From Alphaproteobacteria bacterium (GTDB lineage: Bacteria; Pseudomonadota; Alphaproteobacteria; Rs-D84), in assembly GCA_017962125.1 (NCBI GenBank), contig JAGCVZ010000011.1, positions 182,255 through 246,254 of the forward strand: a stretch of DNA of 64,000 bases, read 5' to 3'. The notes under the pieces were generated by a model, which was given only the letters and a program-made list of their open reading frames with translations, was not told where the DNA came from and ran no database searches. Positions 22,370-45,510 of the stretch are shown here, piece after piece (the first letter of the stretch is position 1; every line of letters starts with the position of its first letter). The translations under genes were made by a program, and so were the position numbers.

Positions 22370-22425
22370 GCTATATTATAAATTGCATTGTTGATATATT
22401 TATTTATGCGATATCAAATAATAAA

Positions 22426-22452
22426 AACCGCCGAAAGAATTCGGCGGTTCTT
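22426..22452. terminator. bidirectional intrinsic terminator (ACCGCCGAA-AGAA-TTCGGCGGT)
   Basis: Hairpin with a T-run on the minus strand side (after the DUF805 gene) and a TCTT tail on the plus side. Confidence 0.5.
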
Positions 22453-22474
22453 AATAACACTAAACTTTGATGAA

Positions 22475-23005
22475 TCACTTCCTGCTTGGCAAACATCCGA
22501 CAACAATATTGAATATAGTATCAACAATAAAGAACAATGCATACAATGCCATCCCAGAAGACACATACCCAAACGCCATCATCGCATACCATTTCGTACC
22601 ACGAAGAATTGGCACCAAGTAAATAACCAACATTGGAATAAGGTACAACCACACCGAAATCCCAGCATCACGAAAACGACGAACTGAAAGCGACATAATC
22701 GGGATGAATAAAATTGCACTAACAATCAACGAAACTATCCCCCCAGGGAAGAAATACGCAAAGCACCAATTCACCAAGAACGCAAACAATAGACCAAACC
22801 AAAATTCCGCACGCGTGGAACGACCAACGAAATCAAAATACCGCCGCCAAAAACTTGCAATCGCAGATAACGGTCCAACCATAGGACGTGGACGCGGAGC
22901 CTGAACGACCTTTTCACGCACAATCGCACGACGCGCCGGTGCACGTTTCACAGATTTTTTTGTTGTTGTTTTCTTTGCTGTTGTTTTCTTTTTTGCAACT
23001 GGCAT
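22475..23005 (-). CDS. DUF805 family inner-membrane protein with Lys-rich histone-H1-like N-terminal tail
   Basis: The pattern SFWRRYFDFVGRSTRAEFWF matches DUF805. N-terminus is MPVAKKKTTAKKTTTKKSVKRAPARR. RBS AAGGAGAG. Confidence 0.6.
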   Translation of the reverse strand: MPVAKKKTTAKKTTTKKSVKRAPARRAIVREKVVQAPRPRPMVGPLSAIASFWRRYFDFVGRSTRAEFWFGLLFAFLVNWCFAYFFPGGIVSLIVSAILFIPIMSLSVRRFRDAGISVWLYLIPMLVIYLVPILRGTKWYAMMAFGYVSSGMALYALFFIVDTIFNIVVGCLPSRK

Positions 23006-30615: not shown

Positions 30616-31056
30616 TTACTCGACCAGATTGCCAAATATAGCGGTGCGAAGGCCAAGGTTCGACCCAAGGTTATTACTGCATTTTTGTGCACACCCACTT
30701 GAACAAGAGTTACCCGGATAACCATTCCCTATCCAGATAGATTCCACAGGATGCAACATTTTACAAAAGCAATAAGTCTTTTGCGTCTGATTCATAAGAC
30801 AATCTTGGCTCGTTGGTACAACCCCAGGCGCACTTGAGGTGTTTTGACCACAGGCATAACTACATATAGAAATCCCACTTACAATCCCGTAACTAAACTG
30901 TGTGGACCATGTGTTGTTGGTTGCATCACTTGACAAGCCTGTCCCGCTAATTTGCGGGTCCAAGACGACCATAATACTGCCGTCTTTTACGCACATGTTT
31001 TCCCCATATGCAATAATTGGTAAAATCATAAATAATAATATAATTATTCTTTTCAT
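30616..31056 (-). CDS. small secreted cysteine-rich protein (trio member 1)
   Basis: ORF trimmed to the ATG at 31056 (MKRIIILLFMILPIIAYG). 10 Cys. C-terminal ..LRTAIFGNLVE. Confidence 0.55.
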   Translation of the reverse strand: MKRIIILLFMILPIIAYGENMCVKDGSIMVVLDPQISGTGLSSDATNNTWSTQFSYGIVSGISICSYACGQNTSSAPGVVPTSQDCLMNQTQKTYCFCKMLHPVESIWIGNGYPGNSCSSGCAQKCSNNLGSNLGLRTAIFGNLVE

Positions 31057-31076
31057 TTTATTTCCCTTTTTCCTTT

Positions 31077-31526
31077 TTACCACACGCCCCCAAACATCGC
31101 CGTCCGGAATGCCGTCGATGTTTGAACTTTTTCCCCACACTTATCCGCACAATTCAACGCGCATGTCGCGGTATCCGCGTAATCTTTGTGTGCCAACACA
31201 GAATAAGACACCAATGGTTTCCGCATCACACACCAACAATATGGTCCAGATTCTTCACCCCCAGTTATACCTACCGTTGTATCCACTGTATCGATTGCAT
31301 TACTCGCACCAACTTCGGCACATCCCGCATAGCCACTAACATACGGTGTATTCGAACTTGATGTGTTATAACCCATAGTTACCGTCCATGCGCCGTTATT
31401 CCCCGTCGTATGCGATACACCATTGTCGTATATTGATAAACTTGCTACATACGAACCCGTATGAACGCACATGCTCGTCGCATTCGCCATCATCGGCAAC
31501 ATTATCAACGCAAGTATTGTCTTCAC
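31077..31526 (-). CDS. small secreted cysteine-rich protein (trio member 2, paralog of member 1)
   Basis: GTG start overlapping the upstream stop (TAGTG), with a G-run RBS. Shares ..MCV..G.., CxC..P and ..FRTAMFGG with member 1. Confidence 0.5.
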   Translation of the reverse strand: MKTILALIMLPMMANATSMCVHTGSYVASLSIYDNGVSHTTGNNGAWTVTMGYNTSSSNTPYVSGYAGCAEVGASNAIDTVDTTVGITGGEESGPYCWCVMRKPLVSYSVLAHKDYADTATCALNCADKCGEKVQTSTAFRTAMFGGVW

Positions 31527-32341
31527 TATTCCCCCCCATAGTATGTTTGATTATTATATTTCAGATTTATCGTCCCATGCCGCGACCCGTTACCAAGGTT
31601 CACATAACATACATCCCCATTCGCAAACCTTATGTTAATAGACGGAATCGTCGCTCGTTCGCGATATAACGGTAACGCAACACCATTTGATGCGTGCAAT
31701 ACAGTCCCCCCAGATGTACATGCAAGTTGCGGTGTACAAAAGTCCGACATGTTACTAAACCCAAGATACACACGACAATAATCCGCATCTCCATATAATG
31801 AATAGTTCGTCGGGCATTCATCATTCGCATTTGCACGGACAAACGCCATACTGGGAACCGGCGCAAAAAAATTATCTGGACAATTTTCAACCGGATTAGA
31901 CGAACAACCTGATACCGTCGGATATTCCCCAGAACCACATGTTGTCGCACTGCTAACTATTAAATATGCAACATTGCGAGTCGTTTGTTGCGCCTGGTAT
32001 CCCGTATAGCATGTTCCTCCTAATGGTTGAACCACCATAGATGAATTTGTGGTCGCATCGTGAAACCCGGCCGCACAATTACCAACCGTATCGTTTACAC
32101 ATGTACCGTTTGACATATGTTGACCCGTTGGGCATACAATACCACTGGCCTGTGAGACGAATCGAAAATTCCCAATGTTACCTGTATATATTTCATAGCC
32201 GGAATAGCATCTCCCTCCACGTGGGGCAACGGTGCTGGTCGAACTTATCCCCGATGACACAGTCCACCCGTTACCACAGGTTTCATCCGCCATTACCGGT
32301 AACCCAAACACAAATACAAAAATGTAACAAACTTTCTTCAA
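31526..32341 (-). CDS. secreted cysteine-rich protein (271 aa, trio member 3)
   Basis: TTG start with a GAGGGG RBS. Signal peptide. 20 Cys in a T/S/G-rich sequence. Confidence 0.5.
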   Translation of the reverse strand: MKKVCYIFVFVFGLPVMADETCGNGWTVSSGISSTSTVAPRGGRCYSGYEIYTGNIGNFRFVSQASGIVCPTGQHMSNGTCVNDTVGNCAAGFHDATTNSSMVVQPLGGTCYTGYQAQQTTRNVAYLIVSSATTCGSGEYPTVSGCSSNPVENCPDNFFAPVPSMAFVRANANDECPTNYSLYGDADYCRVYLGFSNMSDFCTPQLACTSGGTVLHASNGVALPLYRERATIPSINIRFANGDVCYVNLGNGSRHGTINLKYNNQTYYGGE

Positions 32342-32388
32342 TTTGCCCCTCGCAATATAAAAAATTTAAACCGCCAAACGGAAATGAC

Positions 32389-32461
32389 GGTCGGGGTGTT
32401 CGAAAATCAAATCTGCTATGACTCCCGTAACATTTAGATATACGCCACAGGCACCCCGACC
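32389..32461. repeat. conserved 74-nt stem-loop element, copy B (GGTCGGGGTG...GATATAC...CACCCCGACC)
   Basis: Same terminal 10-bp complementary arms and spacing as 43896..43969. Loop contains GATATAC in both. Confidence 0.5.
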
Positions 32462-32672
32462 AATGATCGAGGCATAAAACATAATGACGGCACAAAACAT
32501 CGGAAAATAATAGATTACGACAATTCTGTGCCGGCAGATTTGGGCCTTCGACAGCCCCAAAACGAATTCCCATTCGCTTCGAAAAGTATGCTACTAAAAG
32601 GCACCACCAAAAGCAAGCAAAAACGGCGCCCTTGTTTTTTGAAAAAAATAAGTTATAATAATCCTACGTCAC

Positions 32673-32749
32673 GTGCCCATGGCTCAATTGGATAGAGCAA
32701 TTGCCTTCTAAGCAATAGGTTGCAGGTTCGAGTCCTGCTGGGCACGCCA
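32673..32749 (+). tRNA. tRNA-Arg (anticodon TCT)
   Basis: Acceptor GTGCCCA/TGGGCAC, anticodon stem ATTGC/GCAAT with loop CTTCTAA, T-arm GCAGG-TTCGAGT-CCTGC, encoded CCA. Confidence 0.85.
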
Positions 32750-33937: not shown

Positions 33938-36514
33938 TTACATTTGCATATCTTCACACTTTTCAACCGGGTCAGACTCAGTACAATTAACTTCGTCCTT
34001 TTGTCCTATACCCAAGAATCCATTTTTATGCACTGTATTGCAACTCTTGGTCACCGTCGAAGAACAAAGCCGACATATACGCGTTTCACGATTAAATGTT
34101 GACCACATTTGGCGCGTGCCACCTGGGATATTATATGCACTTTTATTACCGGCACCAGACAAGGCATATACACCTTCACTTGCGCCAAGCGATACAGCCG
34201 CCGACAAACCACGCATAACCTTATCGCCCACACCTTTGCCATAACCCGCTCTCTCGTTACTCACACTGCCCATACCACTTGTTGCGGACGTACCATGACC
34301 ACCCTGGGCAAGCAATCTATTATCCAACCCCACCCCTACTTCATAACTAATCGCGTATGGTGGCGCAAGATTTACCTGTTGTTCTTGTACTGCCTTTCCA
34401 CCAAAAATTCCACGTGAAAAAGGCAACATTTGGCAATTATATTGTGCAATGTCAACCTCTGCATCTCGGCTTGCCTTGGCAACATATTCATCGAATTTAG
34501 CTCTCTGATTCTCTGATGCTTTATTCAACGCCGCACTTGTGATTTTGCCCAAATACTGATTTAACAAATTCGGGAAACGCGCCACAGTGGATGTACCAGT
34601 ATCACCTGTTATCTGATCCAAACTACGCCCTGTTACACAGAACTGAATTTTTGGATCCAATTCAATCATATCTATCACACGATTTATTTTCTCTGCAACA
34701 CTGTTCAACTCCATTTCTATAGATGCCAAAATACCTTCTGAATCCTTAACGCCATCATTTACCTCTCTAGCACGCGCCATATAATCTTTGACACCAACTT
34801 TACCAAGGCCAAGCTTCTTACCCCCATCTTTCTTGGTGCTACCATCGCCGACGTTCAGCATATCAAACGAAATCATCCCAGTAATACGATATACATTACC
34901 ATCTTTCACACTGCGCAAACTGCCTGTGCCAATTGTTTCATCAGATGCCCAACGATTGCAATCGGTTGTAGAACCACAAATTTCCATCATTTTATCTTCG
35001 ACAACTTTCTGACAATTTTCTAATGCTTTGTTATCCATATTCAGATAAAGCCCCATTATCATGGAATCAATATCTTCCATCTTGAAGTTTTTATTATTCG
35101 CCTTGCAAACCACAAGTTTATCAAGTGGACAAAGATTATGAACAAATTCCCAATCCATACCTATACAATTCATAAAATCAGGTCCACAACGATCTTCGGA
35201 ATAAATACAATCTTTAACCTCCTGGGTGCACGCATCAACACGCATCGCCGCTAACTTGTCTTTTACATATCCCCAAATCAGTGGTTCCATACGTTCACAC
35301 GGATCAAGTTGAACCTTGCAAAACGATCTCGCCATATCAGGTCGTGATAAACACGAATCCATTGTCGCCTTGCCCTTGCCCACAATATCATCTTTGCAAG
35401 CCGTTTGAATACATTTCGTAATATCCGTTAAACAAGATTGCCGCACATTGGATTCTGCACGCAATTCTGCAAGTTTCAAACTTGGGGCAACTTCACGTAA
35501 AAACGCAGTCCAAACATTATTACGTACCGCCATACATTGGTCCAAAACTCGTTCACAAATTGTTCGTTTTGATTCAAGCCGTTCCAACACTGACGGTGTT
35601 ATATCGTAAGCAACGGTTGTACTTACCTTGGTCCCGGCGGTACTAGTTGCGGTCTTGTTTTGCATATTTTCATTTGCAATTATGGAAACACAATTTACCC
35701 AATCATCCCCGCAAGCATCAGCGCCAAGCATACAGTTTTTCAATTCAACCATGCATTCACCCTGATTGAATTTATTAGATGAATCAAAACTTTCTTTTAA
35801 CGCGGTTCTAACATCGGATTCTGCCGAATTCATTGCGGATTTCGCCGCAGCACGTTGTTCGGCAATACTATTTGCAAACCCACGACAATCCGATTCTATC
35901 TGACGTTGATAAATCTGTTTTAACAATTTTATATCTTTAACACACGATGAACCCAACTGATCTCGACATGTATCATCCGCAACTTTGAACAGTTCCGCCC
36001 CAGTCTTGTGCATAATATCATCATCGTCTTCTTCGTCATCTTCTTCGCTTAAATTTGTTTCAAACATCTTCATCAAACTTTCACGTTTCGATTTTCTCTT
36101 ATCCGCCGCGGTCATCTCTCCGACTTTGATAACATTTCCTTTTTCGTCATATTTGCGTTCACCCGTAAAGACAATATCTGCATTTGCACCAAGTTTTATT
36201 TTTTCTACCTCTACCGTTTTTACACGATCGGCCTCGGCTAACATTTCGTTTATTTCTTCAAGTTCGGCTTCATACTTTGTATTACTGTTACTACACAGAC
36301 AACTGCCCCCATTTATATTTTCCGACATACAAAATTGATCCATACAACCATAGTATTCATCATAGCATTCCTGAGAATAAATGCCCTTGGCCGCAACCCG
36401 CGCACGAACATTTGTCCCATTTTGAATTGCTGATTGTTTCTTTGCTGTTGCCGCAACCGCAACAACCGGTATAATCAATAACGCTGATAAAAAGGCAATT
36501 TTTTTCATTTTCAT
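33938..36514 (-). CDS. large secreted cysteine-rich protein, paralog P3
   Basis: 858 aa. Signal peptide, then CYDEYYGCMDQFCMSENINGGSCLCS, an acidic DDEEDDDD run, ICERVLDQCMAVRNNVW, and a C-terminal ..CTESDPVEKCEDMQM. Confidence 0.7.
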   Translation of the reverse strand: MKMKKIAFLSALLIIPVVAVAATAKKQSAIQNGTNVRARVAAKGIYSQECYDEYYGCMDQFCMSENINGGSCLCSNSNTKYEAELEEINEMLAEADRVKTVEVEKIKLGANADIVFTGERKYDEKGNVIKVGEMTAADKRKSKRESLMKMFETNLSEEDDEEDDDDIMHKTGAELFKVADDTCRDQLGSSCVKDIKLLKQIYQRQIESDCRGFANSIAEQRAAAKSAMNSAESDVRTALKESFDSSNKFNQGECMVELKNCMLGADACGDDWVNCVSIIANENMQNKTATSTAGTKVSTTVAYDITPSVLERLESKRTICERVLDQCMAVRNNVWTAFLREVAPSLKLAELRAESNVRQSCLTDITKCIQTACKDDIVGKGKATMDSCLSRPDMARSFCKVQLDPCERMEPLIWGYVKDKLAAMRVDACTQEVKDCIYSEDRCGPDFMNCIGMDWEFVHNLCPLDKLVVCKANNKNFKMEDIDSMIMGLYLNMDNKALENCQKVVEDKMMEICGSTTDCNRWASDETIGTGSLRSVKDGNVYRITGMISFDMLNVGDGSTKKDGGKKLGLGKVGVKDYMARAREVNDGVKDSEGILASIEMELNSVAEKINRVIDMIELDPKIQFCVTGRSLDQITGDTGTSTVARFPNLLNQYLGKITSAALNKASENQRAKFDEYVAKASRDAEVDIAQYNCQMLPFSRGIFGGKAVQEQQVNLAPPYAISYEVGVGLDNRLLAQGGHGTSATSGMGSVSNERAGYGKGVGDKVMRGLSAAVSLGASEGVYALSGAGNKSAYNIPGGTRQMWSTFNRETRICRLCSSTVTKSCNTVHKNGFLGIGQKDEVNCTESDPVEKCEDMQM

Positions 36515-42298: not shown

Positions 42299-43708
42299 AT
42301 GCTAGAATATTTACGTAATGCGGCTGATAAACCATTAGCCAAAGTTTTAATGGGAATTCTAATCTTTTCGTTCGTTGGATGGGGTGTTGCTGAATGGGTT
42401 TTTGGTCTTACATCGTCCGACACAACACTTTTGCGTGTTGGTGGCGAAAAAATTTCGATACAACAATATAACAATGTTCGATCAAACGAACTTGCAGCCA
42501 TGTCGCGCGAAGAACAACGCGAATTGTATTCAAATCCTGTCAAAATGTTGGATTTTCAAAACGGTGTAATACAACATATCGCTTCGGCACGCCGAATTGA
42601 TAAACATGCCCATGATTTAGGATATGTTGTATCAGATCACCGAATCGCAAATACAATTCGTGCTATTCCGCAATTCCAAGACAACGGAAAATTTTCACCC
42701 GCGACATTTGATATGGTTTTACGTGGTTCTGGGTTAACCGAATCGGATATAGCAGCAGACATCCGCGTAAAGGCACTAAACACAATGGTTCTAACACCAA
42801 CAATAACGCCAATAACCACACCGCAATTTGTCGCACTGGCTACATATAACGCGCGCAATGCAAAGCGCGATGTAAACATGACAACGGTAAAATTTTCTGA
42901 TTTCAAAGTTGGGAAACCAACAGATGAAAACTTGCGCGATTTTTACGCAAAAAATCCGCACCATGTTCCCGAAGCACGTGATATATCATACGTAATGATT
43001 CCGGCGGCAATGGATAAACCAGACGAATATGAAAACGGCCTTAAAGCGGCCCAGAAAATGGAAGACGATATAATAGGTGGCGAAACATTAGTTGCCGCGG
43101 CCAAGAAACATGGCGCAACATTTAAACAACATAACGGTATTTCGTCGGAAAAACTGCCAAATGATAAAAACATTAACGAATCGGTTATCGCAAAAATTTT
43201 TGAACTTGCCCCAGAAACCGAAAGTGAACTTATCGAAACAAAGCAAGGTTTTGTCATTGTGCGGGTTGATAAAATTATTCCTGAACATAACGCAGACTTT
43301 GATTCAATAAAAAAGGAACTTGTAAACGAATGGACACATGCCGAACAAGAAAAACTGGCGTATGTCCGGGCGAATGAGTTATTAGTTGATTTAAACAAAA
43401 CCGGCAATTTACAAAACGCAAAAAAGTTAACAGTTTCACGCACAGATGGGGCACCGATGCCGGTCTTGGTTGCGGCATTCAAAAACCCAATAGGCGACAA
43501 ATCAATTGTGGCTGCGCCTAATGCATTCTATGTCTTGAATGTTATAAACGAAAAATTGCCAGAACTTGACACCAAAAAGATTGAACAAATAAAACCAGAA
43601 ATTACAAATATGGCTATGCAACATCTAAATGCGGATTATAATTCATACCTTGAACGCGAATATCCCACCAAGATAAACGAGAAAATGTATAACAGATTTG
43701 TAAAATAA
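42299..43708 (+). CDS. periplasmic chaperone PpiD-like (SurA N-terminal domain protein, TM-anchored)
   Basis: 469 aa. N-terminal TM anchor (VLMGILIFSFVGWGV), then a SurA-N-like domain. No clear intact PPIase motif seen. Confidence 0.65.
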   Translation: MLEYLRNAADKPLAKVLMGILIFSFVGWGVAEWVFGLTSSDTTLLRVGGEKISIQQYNNVRSNELAAMSREEQRELYSNPVKMLDFQNGVIQHIASARRIDKHAHDLGYVVSDHRIANTIRAIPQFQDNGKFSPATFDMVLRGSGLTESDIAADIRVKALNTMVLTPTITPITTPQFVALATYNARNAKRDVNMTTVKFSDFKVGKPTDENLRDFYAKNPHHVPEARDISYVMIPAAMDKPDEYENGLKAAQKMEDDIIGGETLVAAAKKHGATFKQHNGISSEKLPNDKNINESVIAKIFELAPETESELIETKQGFVIVRVDKIIPEHNADFDSIKKELVNEWTHAEQEKLAYVRANELLVDLNKTGNLQNAKKLTVSRTDGAPMPVLVAAFKNPIGDKSIVAAPNAFYVLNVINEKLPELDTKKIEQIKPEITNMAMQHLNADYNSYLEREYPTKINEKMYNRFVK

Positions 43709-43715
43709 TTCTTTT

Positions 43716-43740
43716 CCCCGCAATCGCGGGGATTTTTTTA
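43716..43740 (+). terminator. intrinsic terminator of the ppiD-like gene (CCCCGCAATCGCGGGG + T7)
   Basis: Hairpin 8 nt after the stop, followed by TTTTTTT. Confidence 0.6.
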
Positions 43741-43782
43741 CTTGCCTTGAATTAGTTAAGTTTGTTAGCATAAATACGAAGC

Positions 43783-44022
43783 CATGTGGGAACTTGGTTT
43801 CGGGCTGTAGCAGGCCTTACCTATTCGGTGCGAAGCATCGTAATCCATTGTGATTTCTCATGCTTTTGCACCGTCAAAGATAAAACCCCGATTTTGGTCG
43901 GGGTGCCCTTGGGATATACATAAAACCCATGGGGTCATCTAATAGGTATGATTTGCTAACACCCCGACCGCTTGGTTTCCAAAGCGGTGTTTTTATTTTA
44001 CAGAAAAAAAAGGGGGAGGAAC
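43783..44022 (+). promoter_or_regulatory. structured 5' leader of the 44023 gene with an intrinsic terminator (putative attenuator / riboswitch-like)
   Basis: Candidate promoter TTGAAT-N17-ATAAAT at ~43748-43776. GGTCGGGGTG (43896-43905) can pair with either an upstream CCCCGA hairpin or with CACCCCGACC (43960-43969). The latter overlaps the 5' arm of the terminator ACCGCTTGG..CCAAAGCGGT + T-run (43967-43996), which sits 26 nt before a strong-RBS ATG. Confidence 0.35.
43896..43969. repeat. conserved 74-nt stem-loop element, copy A
   Basis: GGTCGGGGTG ... GATATAC ... CACCCCGACC, matching 32389..32461. Confidence 0.5.
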
Positions 44023-45510
44023 ATGAGAAAGTTCATGATATTCGGGTTGTTCGCGGCATTTATCGGTTTCGCATTCGCCGATGATATTGCCGACAGGCAA
44101 ACAGTAACATCACTAACGTATGTAAATGATGAACTTTCTGAAAAACAAGATATATTCGGTGCGCAATCAGGAACAAAAGTTGCAACTTTTACCAATACCG
44201 CCGGGGAAATCACACCACGCGAAGTAAAATCAGATTTAGGCAATAACACAAACGACACCGCATTACCAACGGTTAGTGCAGTGAATACAGGTTTAGATGC
44301 CACCCAAGATACACTTGGTGCAAACAAACATGCGGATTATGTTGCGACATATACAAATGCGCCGGGTGAATTAGGTGAAAAAGGAATCTATCAAGACAGT
44401 GGCACATACGCCGAACAACAAAATGCACTTGTTGATGCGGGAACATTTAATGCGGCATTACAAAACGGATTGGATAATGAATTTGTTTGTGCCGGCAATG
44501 ACCCCGCAACCGGTAATTGTTGGTTATGGACGACACATAATGGACCGGTGAACTTGTTTAATGGGACCATGTATAAAGGCGGTTTAAATCTCAACGTCTC
44601 GTTTGTAGCTTCCAATTTTAAAAAAATTACTTCGCCATATACCCCAAACTCTGACTTTTATGGTCCAACCTTTTATGCAAGGGTTAAACCAAATACGAAA
44701 TACATGGTAACCATGACCACGAGTGCAAGATATAAATACGTTGCCTATTATTCAAACGAAAGTGATATTACCGATAGAAGTCTGGCATTAGGATATGCCA
44801 ACGTATCTAATAACATGTTCACCACACCATCAGGTGCAAATTACGCTGTTATTAGTTTTACTAATGCCAACACCAATGAAATAACATGGTCAAATGTCGA
44901 GCTCTATGAAATACCTGATTCCATTCTGGTTCCTTATGCATATACCCCGTTGGAATATATAGAAGCAACAAACGAAACCACAACTATTAATTTAGGGCTT
45001 TCCGGAGATATGAATTTTCTGGTTGTAGCACAATCAAGTAGAATAAAAGGCGCTTCACAAACCTTGCTTTCATCTACAAATGGCGGAAACACTAGTACAT
45101 GGTTTGGCGAGGCTACAACTACGCATACTTGGGGCGTGAGCGGTGCTAGCGGCGCTCATGCTATCTATTCAACTGAAAAGATATCTGCTAATATCACATT
45201 TGATTCTTTTGGGGCAAGGGGGACGGTAAATGGGCAAACCATTGTGAGAAATAAAGATACAACACAACAAAATTGGTGTTTGTTTAGTACTTGTATTGGC
45301 TATTATCCGTTTTTAGGCAAAGTTTGGACATTGCGAGCATATCAAAATGGTGTGCTTGTAGGAAATTTTATCCCCGCAAAACGTAATAGCGATAATGAAA
45401 TTGGTATGTACGATACAGTATCGGGCACGTTTAAAACTAACACTGGCACCGGAACACTTATCGCCGGGCCAGAGATAAGTAATAATGTTTACCTGCCCCA
45501 GAATCAGTGA
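44023..45510 (+). CDS. secreted Cys-poor T/N/S/G-rich beta-rich protein (adhesin- or fibre-like)
   Basis: ATG at 44023 with RBS AGGGGGAGGA and signal peptide MRKFMIFGLFAAFIGFAFA. About 495 aa with only 3 Cys. C-terminal ..GMYDTVSGTFKTNTGTGTLIAG... Confidence 0.6.
   Translation: MRKFMIFGLFAAFIGFAFADDIADRQTVTSLTYVNDELSEKQDIFGAQSGTKVATFTNTAGEITPREVKSDLGNNTNDTALPTVSAVNTGLDATQDTLGANKHADYVATYTNAPGELGEKGIYQDSGTYAEQQNALVDAGTFNAALQNGLDNEFVCAGNDPATGNCWLWTTHNGPVNLFNGTMYKGGLNLNVSFVASNFKKITSPYTPNSDFYGPTFYARVKPNTKYMVTMTTSARYKYVAYYSNESDITDRSLALGYANVSNNMFTTPSGANYAVISFTNANTNEITWSNVELYEIPDSILVPYAYTPLEYIEATNETTTINLGLSGDMNFLVVAQSSRIKGASQTLLSSTNGGNTSTWFGEATTTHTWGVSGASGAHAIYSTEKISANITFDSFGARGTVNGQTIVRNKDTTQQNWCLFSTCIGYYPFLGKVWTLRAYQNGVLVGNFIPAKRNSDNEIGMYDTVSGTFKTNTGTGTLIAGPEISNNVYLPQNQ

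Follow-up and report, generated by a model that had tools for sequence, protein, structure and literature searches.

Does the long segment that separates a ppiD/SurA-like gene (42299-43708) from a 495-aa open reading frame (ORF; ATG at 44023) control that second gene, and by what means? The locus lies in a 64,000-nucleotide stretch, hereafter the window, of contig JAGCVZ010000011.1 (positions 182,255 to 246,254) from a Candidatus Enterousia-like alphaproteobacterium of the order Rs-D84, a lineage with genomes of ~0.75 to 1.0 Mb (PMC12306168). An original prediction, made from the letters alone, had placed a candidate attenuator or riboswitch here. Bases 43778 to ~43999 are the complete 5' leader, ~215 nt, of this secreted-protein gene, and we infer that the leader is probably a cis-acting transcription attenuator in which two helices, A and B, compete for the strand that completes the terminator.

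The competing elements all lie on the + strand. The shared strand, G2 (GGTCGGGGTG, 43896..43905), can pair locally with C1 (43886..43892), the 5' strand of helix A, through CCCCGA (43886-43891), or distally with C2 (CACCCCGACC, 43960..43969), a perfect 10-bp partner and the 3' strand of helix B. Helix A is the proposed anti-antiterminator and helix B the proposed antiterminator; both pairings had been predicted, and both are present where they were placed. An intrinsic terminator occupies 43967..43999. Indeed, a terminator scan picks up the hairpin and T-run that had been read by eye at ~43967-44000, as ACCGCTTGG-TTTCC-AAAGCGGT (43967-43988) followed by GTTTTTATTTT, a GC-rich hairpin leading directly into a U-tract. 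The ACC at the 3' end of C2 (columns A336-C338 of alignment A3, described below) is common to helix B and the base of the terminator; in the terminator, these bases have as partner the GGU at the end of the stem, adjacent to the U-tract. The predicted overlap between the distal pairing and the 5' arm of the terminator therefore exists and amounts to 3 nt.

To ask whether these strands are conserved, we relied on homologous copies, of which a profile search finds at least 138 places in 134 sources. A metagenome scan with an exact pattern returned at least 120 loci from rumen, termite gut, and human gut. The sources of the copies are Candidatus Enterousia-like metagenome-assembled genomes and rumen, termite-gut, and human-gut metagenomes, and at least four metagenome contigs carry two copies each. 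The fetch pattern fixed TCGGG..GC and GATTT...AAC.CCCCGAC and left free all the covarying positions cited here. Copies found through ppiD do not depend on this pattern: a ~230-nt homologous element, not always beside ppiD, is present at 8 of 80 ppiD-fetched species-level loci, and nine such pattern-independent copies carry the same conserved motifs. Alignment A3 contains 113 unique copies; column numbers and counts out of 113 refer to it. The search for orthologous leaders and covariation that the original prediction had called for thus yields more than 130 copies, with the predicted pairings conserved throughout.

Across the family, the shared strand reads GGUCGGGGNG, its distal partner CNCCCCGACC, and its local partner CCCYGA(C). 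The free position in helix B (pair 248-327) covaries, with UA in 46 copies, AU in 43, GU in 16, and UG in 5, and is unpaired in only 2 of 113. Helix A shows its own constraint: position 224 is C in 68 copies, U in 45, and a purine in none, and the apical extension of the helix averages 2.12 pairs in cis versus 1.69 +/- 0.04 in permuted combinations, a value reached by 0 of 2,000 permutations. Three copies carry a cUUCGg loop in the helix A hairpin. The mean duplex energy of helix A is approximately -12.6 kcal/mol; helix B, at approximately -19.1 kcal/mol, is the stronger of the two. The terminator is kept as well; a hairpin with at least four U in the next 8 nt is found in 112 of 113 copies (mean hairpin energy, -9.9 kcal/mol), and its stem covaries (pair 339-362: GC 80, AU 26). 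Comparison of the copies shows helices A and B, mutually exclusive in the predicted fold, to be both under selection. As far as anatomy and selection go, the data support the predicted geometry of terminator, antiterminator, and anti-antiterminator.

Is the conserved structure one of RNA, and on which strand? Folding energies compared with those of shuffled sequences give z = -3.3 on the + strand and -4.6 on the - strand; both strands fold better than shuffles, and folding energy alone therefore leaves the strand undecided. Among the proposed pairs in A3, however, G.U outnumbers A.C by 630 to 111, indicating an RNA structure on the strand of the downstream gene. The evidence for the structure comes from an unbiased scan of all column pairs and from two explicit structure counts, with agreeing results. 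Over the 113 copies, 92.5% of the cells in proposed pairs hold standard pairs, versus 77.8% in shuffles, and the covariation score is 0.431, compared with 0.173 for shuffles and at most 0.078 for slid controls. Both-sided changes occur in 43 of 60 pairs, and 0 of 500 shuffles reach any of the five measures.

The G.U excess also speaks against a DNA-level repeat of the REP, MITE, or integron attC-like kind with no RNA function. Such repeats are strand-symmetric palindromes that lie in either orientation with no fixed relation to genes; the element has a fixed orientation and a fixed distance to its promoter and to the next gene, and no flanking duplications or transposase genes are seen. Its multiple copies, and the frequency of related sRNA-Xcc1 RNAs in integron cassettes and phages, fit a repeat, but we give this explanation a probability close to nil. 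No Rfam match of the REP type was obtained, and the objection that the leader might be a simple REP-type repeat fails. Just one viral contig in IMG/VR matches the leader pattern, a further point against a mobile repeat, and on this result a phage or mobile-element origin was rejected.

Covariation supports helices P1, P2, P3, P4, and P6, the terminator, and a pseudoknot that joins the P2 loop to the 3' tail; an independent RNAalifold prediction also contains P1, P2, the outer part of P4, P6, the terminator, and the distal helix. Three findings go beyond the features first described: hairpin P1 at the 5' end, a pair of pseudoknots, and the existence of a multi-copy family. P1 (43778..43800, +) is a 5'-terminal hairpin of ~9 bp with arms GAAGCCATGT and ACTTGGTTT and a GNRA tetraloop, GGGA, at 43788-43791; 80 of 113 copies have a GNRA loop here, and pair 33-48 covaries (CG 56, AU 29, GC 9, UA 4). 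The P2 hairpin follows (GGGC/GCCT, 43802..43817, +), and pairing of its loop, TGTAGCAG (43806-43813), with 43953-43958 creates pseudoknot PK1. The partner of the P2 loop is the joiner UUUNNNA, located just 5' of the 3' C-rich strand, and PK1 pairs 63-323, 64-322, and 65-321 are the three strongest covarying column pairs in the whole of A3. P3 is a long-range helix from the linker after P2 to the loop of P7: its 5' strand, TACCTATT (43818..43825, +), pairs with AATAGGTA (43941-43948). All eight of its pairs show both-sided changes, and pairs 82-305 and 83-304 are jointly 92% paired.

P4 (43826..43873, +) is the 12-bp stem CGGTGC..GCACCG already noticed at ~43827-43874, and its outer pairs 88-202 and 89-201 covary. 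An alternative small hairpin, CGGTGC-GAA-GCATCG, can form instead, and its pairs 88-115 and 89-114 covary too. Further downstream, a three-way junction resembling that of sRNA-Xcc1 (43896..43969, +) comprises helix B, P6 (43906-43933), P7 (43934-43938/43949-43953), and the joiner TTGCTAAC; an inner hairpin, P6a, is absent from 25 of 113 copies, including both copies in the window. The minimum-free-energy fold of the single sequence contains a closing helix between the 5' end and the terminator arm. Since the covariation of P1 and P2 is that of local hairpins, this fold was rejected as the main structure.

Two side observations concern these hairpins. In the P4 alternatives (columns 85-90, 113-118, 181-184, and 200-205), both partners follow when the first strand changes from G to A or from U to C, and the small alternative has a GNRA-type loop, GAAA in many copies; this alternation may be a cotranscriptional folding intermediate. 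In addition, the loop and 3' arm of P1 (43788-43800) are complementary to the 5' arm and loop of their own terminator (43968-43980), a pairing that the minimum-free-energy fold employs. The complementarity averages -7.45 kcal/mol within a copy versus -5.78 kcal/mol for other combinations (permutation p < 1/5000), and the P1 3' arm supplies the best partner of the terminator arm in 52 of 113 within-copy combinations compared with 90 of 339 permuted ones. It might represent a second antiterminator or a loop contact.

If the leader acts on its own transcript, transcription should begin upstream of it and run into the next gene. The ppiD-like gene has its own terminator, as predicted (43715-43732, then a T-run, by terminator scan). 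A promoter of the sigma-70 type, identified by its conservation, follows on the + strand at 43742..43771 and belongs to the leader. Its -35-like TTGCCT (43742-43747) is separated by 18 nt from an extended -10, TGtTAGCAT (43763-43771), and the start is predicted near G43778. Nearly all copies have an extended -10, TGnTAnAAT, 6 to 7 nt 5' of the first helix; in columns 5-13, T8 is kept in 102, A9 in 108, and T13 in 109 of 113 copies, plus the TG upstream, and a T-T-G lies ~23 nt 5' of the -10 as seen in 100 flanked copies. A consensus promoter scan did not pick up the leader promoter. Because the -10 lies at 43763-43771, transcription starts upstream of 43900, and the objection that it might begin only after the hairpin fails. 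At the other end, the ribosome-binding site (RBS) AAGGGGGAGG and the controlled gene occupy 44010..45510 (+), and the 495-aa product has a signal-peptide-like start and matches no Pfam or NCBIfam family. Among 131 places, 108 have a same-strand ORF, preceded by a Shine-Dalgarno (SD) sequence, that starts within 300 nt of the match, typically at ~20 to 30 nt, or 15 to 35 nt after the element; most of the remaining 23 run off the contig. Since 15 to 35 nt before the RBS is too short for another promoter, the element is the 5' leader of the downstream gene.

A leader need not switch, and the fold could instead be a static 5' untranslated region that aids mRNA stability, translation, or secretion, its hairpin and U-run being a leaky pause or terminator. 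P1 sits at the predicted +1, like the stabilizing 5' stem-loops known from ompA-type leaders, and the heterogeneity of the downstream genes would suit such a role. We nevertheless think it quite unlikely: two mutually exclusive helices are selected, P4 too has two covarying alternatives, the canonical terminator is almost never lost, and a pseudoknotted fold of 200 nt far exceeds the needs of stabilization.

In the attenuator that we favor, the nascent RNA would form P1, P2, and P4 and then the sRNA-Xcc1-type three-way junction. The junction exposes two elements, and both would dock on the 5' half: the P3 strand would receive the P7 loop, and the P2 loop would receive the joiner UUUNNNA, each contact having covariation support. 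The shared strand GGUCGGGGUG would then choose between the upstream CCCCGA and the downstream CACCCCGACC. With helix A formed, CACCCCGACC would be free, its ACC would complete the terminator, and RNA polymerase would stop ~25 nt before the start codon. With helix B formed, the ACC would be held, the terminator would lack the 3 bp next to the U-tract, on which it would depend most, and transcription would read through into the surface-protein gene. Candidates for the signal are a small ligand, an ion, a protein, and an RNA; most likely it is a factor that stabilizes the closed, knotted junction, which would make the leader an ON switch.

Does this make the leader a riboswitch? It has a conserved, covarying structured domain in a 5' leader and an expression platform with mutually exclusive structures (A versus B, with B sharing ACC with the terminator), but the genes behind it do not point to one metabolite or ion. 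In agreement with the original reading that no known riboswitch consensus is present, no Rfam riboswitch class matches the leader, nor do tRNA, tmRNA, 6S, SRP, or RNase P, and no Rfam family reaches its own threshold there. In fluoride, ZTP, and preQ1-type ON riboswitches, a pseudoknot strand overlaps the terminator. The leader resembles these in that the 3'-most strand of its knotted domain is shared with the 5' base of the terminator, in its competing upstream hairpin, and in its position at the start of the transcript. It differs in that no ligand is suggested by gene context, no sequence or Rfam similarity is seen, the leader far exceeds them in size, and its overlap measures just 3 nt.

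The closest described RNA is instead the poorly understood sRNA-Xcc1 (RF02221), the best Rfam match of the leader at 43778, with 24.8 bits over the full model and a gathering score of 53. The leader is thus below the threshold for membership, and RF02221 is not listed for it in a 2-kb Rfam search. Among 14 relatives, six give full-length, in-register matches of 36.6 to 45.7 bits; relatives that carry P6a score 36 to 46 bits, and bona fide sRNA-Xcc1 from plasmid and phage collections score 69 to 86 bits. The match spans helix B, P6/P6a, P7, and the joiner. In-register cmscan alignments together with covariation in A3 place the RF02221 junction in the leader: the closing helix, the AUAxAA..GAA arm, the second hairpin, and the joiner UUUNNNAAC. 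In both RNAs, a G-rich/C-rich helix (GGYCGGGG.. / ..CCCCGRCC) closes a three-way junction, and both contain an AUA(C/A)AA-hairpin-GAA internal-loop arm, a second hairpin, and the joiner right before the closing strand, followed by a hairpin. Both also adjoin a same-strand ORF, as the leader family does directly upstream of its genes, and both occur in several copies per genome.

The bona fide RNAs, which share GGUUUCGAAC-CUCCCGGCC and AAUACAAUACCCGnAAGGGGAAUA, differ from the leader in what their exposed elements address. Of six that we fetched, five lie 40 to 60 nt upstream of the next gene on the same strand; the next genes encode anti-repressors (Aaphi23 and Stx phage P13374), a BRO protein, an annotated hypothetical protein, and an unannotated ORF, and the sixth, from Neisseria, has no adjacent ORF. 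At 5 of the 6 loci (L206 1482-1640, L208 1485-1620, L209 1498-1625, L210 1786-1915, and L211 1498-1630), the P7 loop has a perfect complement of 7 to 9 nt at the SD sequence or start codon of the next gene, and the joiner UUUNNNA has a complement of 5 to 7 nt just upstream of that site. This RBS complementarity is an observation of the present analysis rather than a published property of sRNA-Xcc1; it suggests that bona fide sRNA-Xcc1 may be a cis-encoded, c4-like regulator of the next gene. Others have located sRNA-Xcc1 upstream of symE and of an ORF6N gene (bioRxiv 10.1101/2025.06.18.660453; 10.1101/2020.03.17.996009). In the Enterousia-like leaders, the P7 loop and joiner pair upstream with the P3 strand and P2 loop and not with the RBS; inspection of 43990-44030 by eye found no copy of TACCTATT, the sequence complementary to the P7 loop. 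The leader further differs in its length of ~215 nt with an added 5' half (P1, P2, P4, and the helix A strand), in its canonical intrinsic terminator, and in preceding chromosomal envelope or secreted-protein genes rather than the ant, BRO, and symE genes of phages and integrons. Judged from predicted architecture, the Enterousia leader is an expanded relative of sRNA-Xcc1, with the same core, partner sites moved upstream, and a terminator as output. One core joined to different expression platforms would resemble sensor RNAs.

This kinship raises the question of whether the element is a small RNA gene of ~215 nt that ends constitutively at the terminator and acts in trans or as a c4-like, cotranscribed antisense RNA, the downstream gene receiving only leak-through. 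Its nearest Rfam family is filed as an sRNA, a discrete RNA of ~100 nt (PMC2996969). It has its own promoter and a strong terminator, the loops of the bona fide RNAs show complementarity to the RBS of the gene that follows, and the Stx phage has C4 and isrK in the vicinity. In the leader, however, the exposed elements pair with full covariation inside the same transcript and not with the RBS, the 15 to 35 nt before the RBS leave no space for a second promoter, and the selected alternation of helices A and B would have no role in a constitutive sRNA. We regard a small RNA gene as unlikely.

The comparison with c4 antisense RNA of phages P1 and P7 (C4, RF01695) bears on both RNAs. The c4 RNA acts by pairing with two sites in its own transcript, and its precursor is processed by RNase P. 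Like c4, the leader is a small folded RNA at the head of the operon controlled, with two short exposed elements that pair with two sites in the same transcript; bona fide sRNA-Xcc1 does likewise at the RBS. Unlike c4, the two sites in the leader lie upstream and are part of the fold, and the output is an intrinsic terminator rather than translational blocking. No Rfam match to C4 was found in the window. As a side observation, in Stx phage P13374 (L210 763-950) the isrK and C4 antisense RNA genes lie ~850 nt upstream of sRNA-Xcc1 in the same immunity and anti-repressor region.

Helix B is followed by R-Y-Y-A, mostly GCCA or ACCA (columns 339-342; window positions 43970-43973 and 32388-32385), which may be a tRNA-acceptor-like end, perhaps for RNase P, or a second partner for the terminator arm. 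These columns change by transitions only (G86/A26, C82/U31, C80/U31, and A55/U42), with no pair flips, unlike the other stems, and the equivalent position of bona fide sRNA-Xcc1 reads ACCA, GCCA, or ACCC. Both features would suit a processing substrate in which helix B plus R-C-C-A mimics a tRNA acceptor end that is cut by RNase P or bound by a CCA factor, cleavage then deciding the fate of the mRNA. The likeness, however, rests on four bases that also form the GC-rich terminator arm, and we consider a processing substrate highly improbable.

Which genes would the attenuator control? Few of the 91 distinct downstream proteins match Pfam; among the families matched are Flg_new (Listeria-Bacteroides repeat) in seven proteins, TRL in two, OMP_b-brl, YadA_anchor, GT2, and PAP2, and one protein is a DNA methylase. 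The matched proteins are mostly envelope related. In a crude test, 70 of 91 downstream proteins have signal-peptide- or lipoprotein-like starts, versus 21 of 41 long ORFs in the window, an enrichment that is only indicative. One leader type repeated before many envelope, adhesin, or polysaccharide genes recalls the leaders of surface regulons, among which are c-di-GMP riboswitches and the RfaH/ops, UpxY, EAR, and put antitermination systems, although no sequence or structural match to these is seen. The same leader before many envelope and secreted-protein genes could constitute a regulon-wide switch in a genome of ~0.9 Mb; if so, a genome-reduced, uncultured gut lineage would run much of its secreted and surface proteome via one RNA leader. 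The analysis also yields a well-supported RNA fold of considerable size that has two pseudoknots and two alternative states under selection and that falls below the thresholds of Rfam itself.

Two side observations on these genes can be added. Eight leader-controlled proteins share a motif, (T/S)xxYV(D/N)..(K/R)Q(D/N/P), just after the signal peptide (e.g., TSKSYVDxxxxQKQD), encoded at window positions 44023-44150, at L022 from 6804 onward, and at L191, L195, L149, L145, L163, and L140; the motif points to a possible family of related surface proteins. At another locus (L048 5069-7319), a leader copy precedes a DNA methyltransferase gene (N6_N4_Mtase), and the controlled genes are therefore not all envelope proteins. 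The oppositely oriented gene pair upstream of that leader resembles HigB/HigA by sequence.

Several points weigh against the attenuator. The main weakness of the model is that helix B and the terminator overlap by just 3 nt. RNAalifold can set 242-336 beside 337-364, with helix B and the terminator adjacent, and the two might coexist, stacked side by side; the proposed effect of helices A and B on termination is deduced from geometry. The sampling is biased, and the invariance of the columns fixed in the fetch pattern is partly so by construction. The 91 downstream proteins, as annotated by Pfam, share no metabolic theme that would name a ligand. Finally, sRNA-Xcc1 has been described as a trans-acting sRNA (PMC2996969), and Chen 2011 is cited to the same effect in bioRxiv 10.1101/2025.06.18.660453.

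A broader and more speculative proposal, to which we assign a low probability, is that sRNA-Xcc1-type RNAs are a widespread, programmable, self-addressing regulatory module and not ordinary sRNAs, a proposal that includes an address shift and copy-specific feedback in trans. Two exposed elements would read two address sites in their own transcript. In phages and integrons, the RBS of ant, BRO, and hypothetical genes (from the literature, also symE) would carry the addresses; in the Enterousia-like lineage, the addresses would have moved upstream, with the module wired to a terminator and copied before much of the set of surface-protein genes. P3 and the PK1 triplet would differ between the copies of one genome and give each its own address, and terminated leaders would act in trans on their own kind only. 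If true, this would let each copy feed back on its own kind, or would make the expression of surface proteins mutually exclusive, in a bacterium that depends on a host and has few protein regulators. The two copies in the window do have different PK1 triplets, and by eye so do four other same-contig pairs in A3; this by-eye observation of distinct addresses within one genome was judged insufficient for significance. The function of sRNA-Xcc1 is also reopened, as its contexts in phages, plasmids, and integrons suggest that it regulates anti-repressor and similar genes in cis.

The attenuator architecture recurs once more within the window. A second complete leader copy, with promoter, P1 to P7, helices A and B, and terminator, occupies 32599..32356 on the - strand (nhmmer E = 1e-37; profile match, 32593..32368). 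A covariance model built for the leader, R1, scores the copy at 43778 at 158 bits and the second at 167.6 bits, and it finds no third copy in the 64-kb window. One candidate, at 22413-22526, was rejected as an ordinary terminator matching only the terminator part of R1.

Behind the second copy lie three consecutive genes for small Cys-rich proteins with signal-peptide-like starts (30616..32341, -), the first of which, 271 aa long and Cys rich, has a TTG start 26 nt after the leader. Cys-rich, signal-peptide-like ORFs without known families number four in this region (271, 149, 174, and 858 aa; 30616-32341, -, and 33938-36514, -), and only the first three are behind a leader copy. On the opposite strand, a tRNA-Arg gene (32673-32749, +) lies ~75 nt upstream of the promoter of the second leader.
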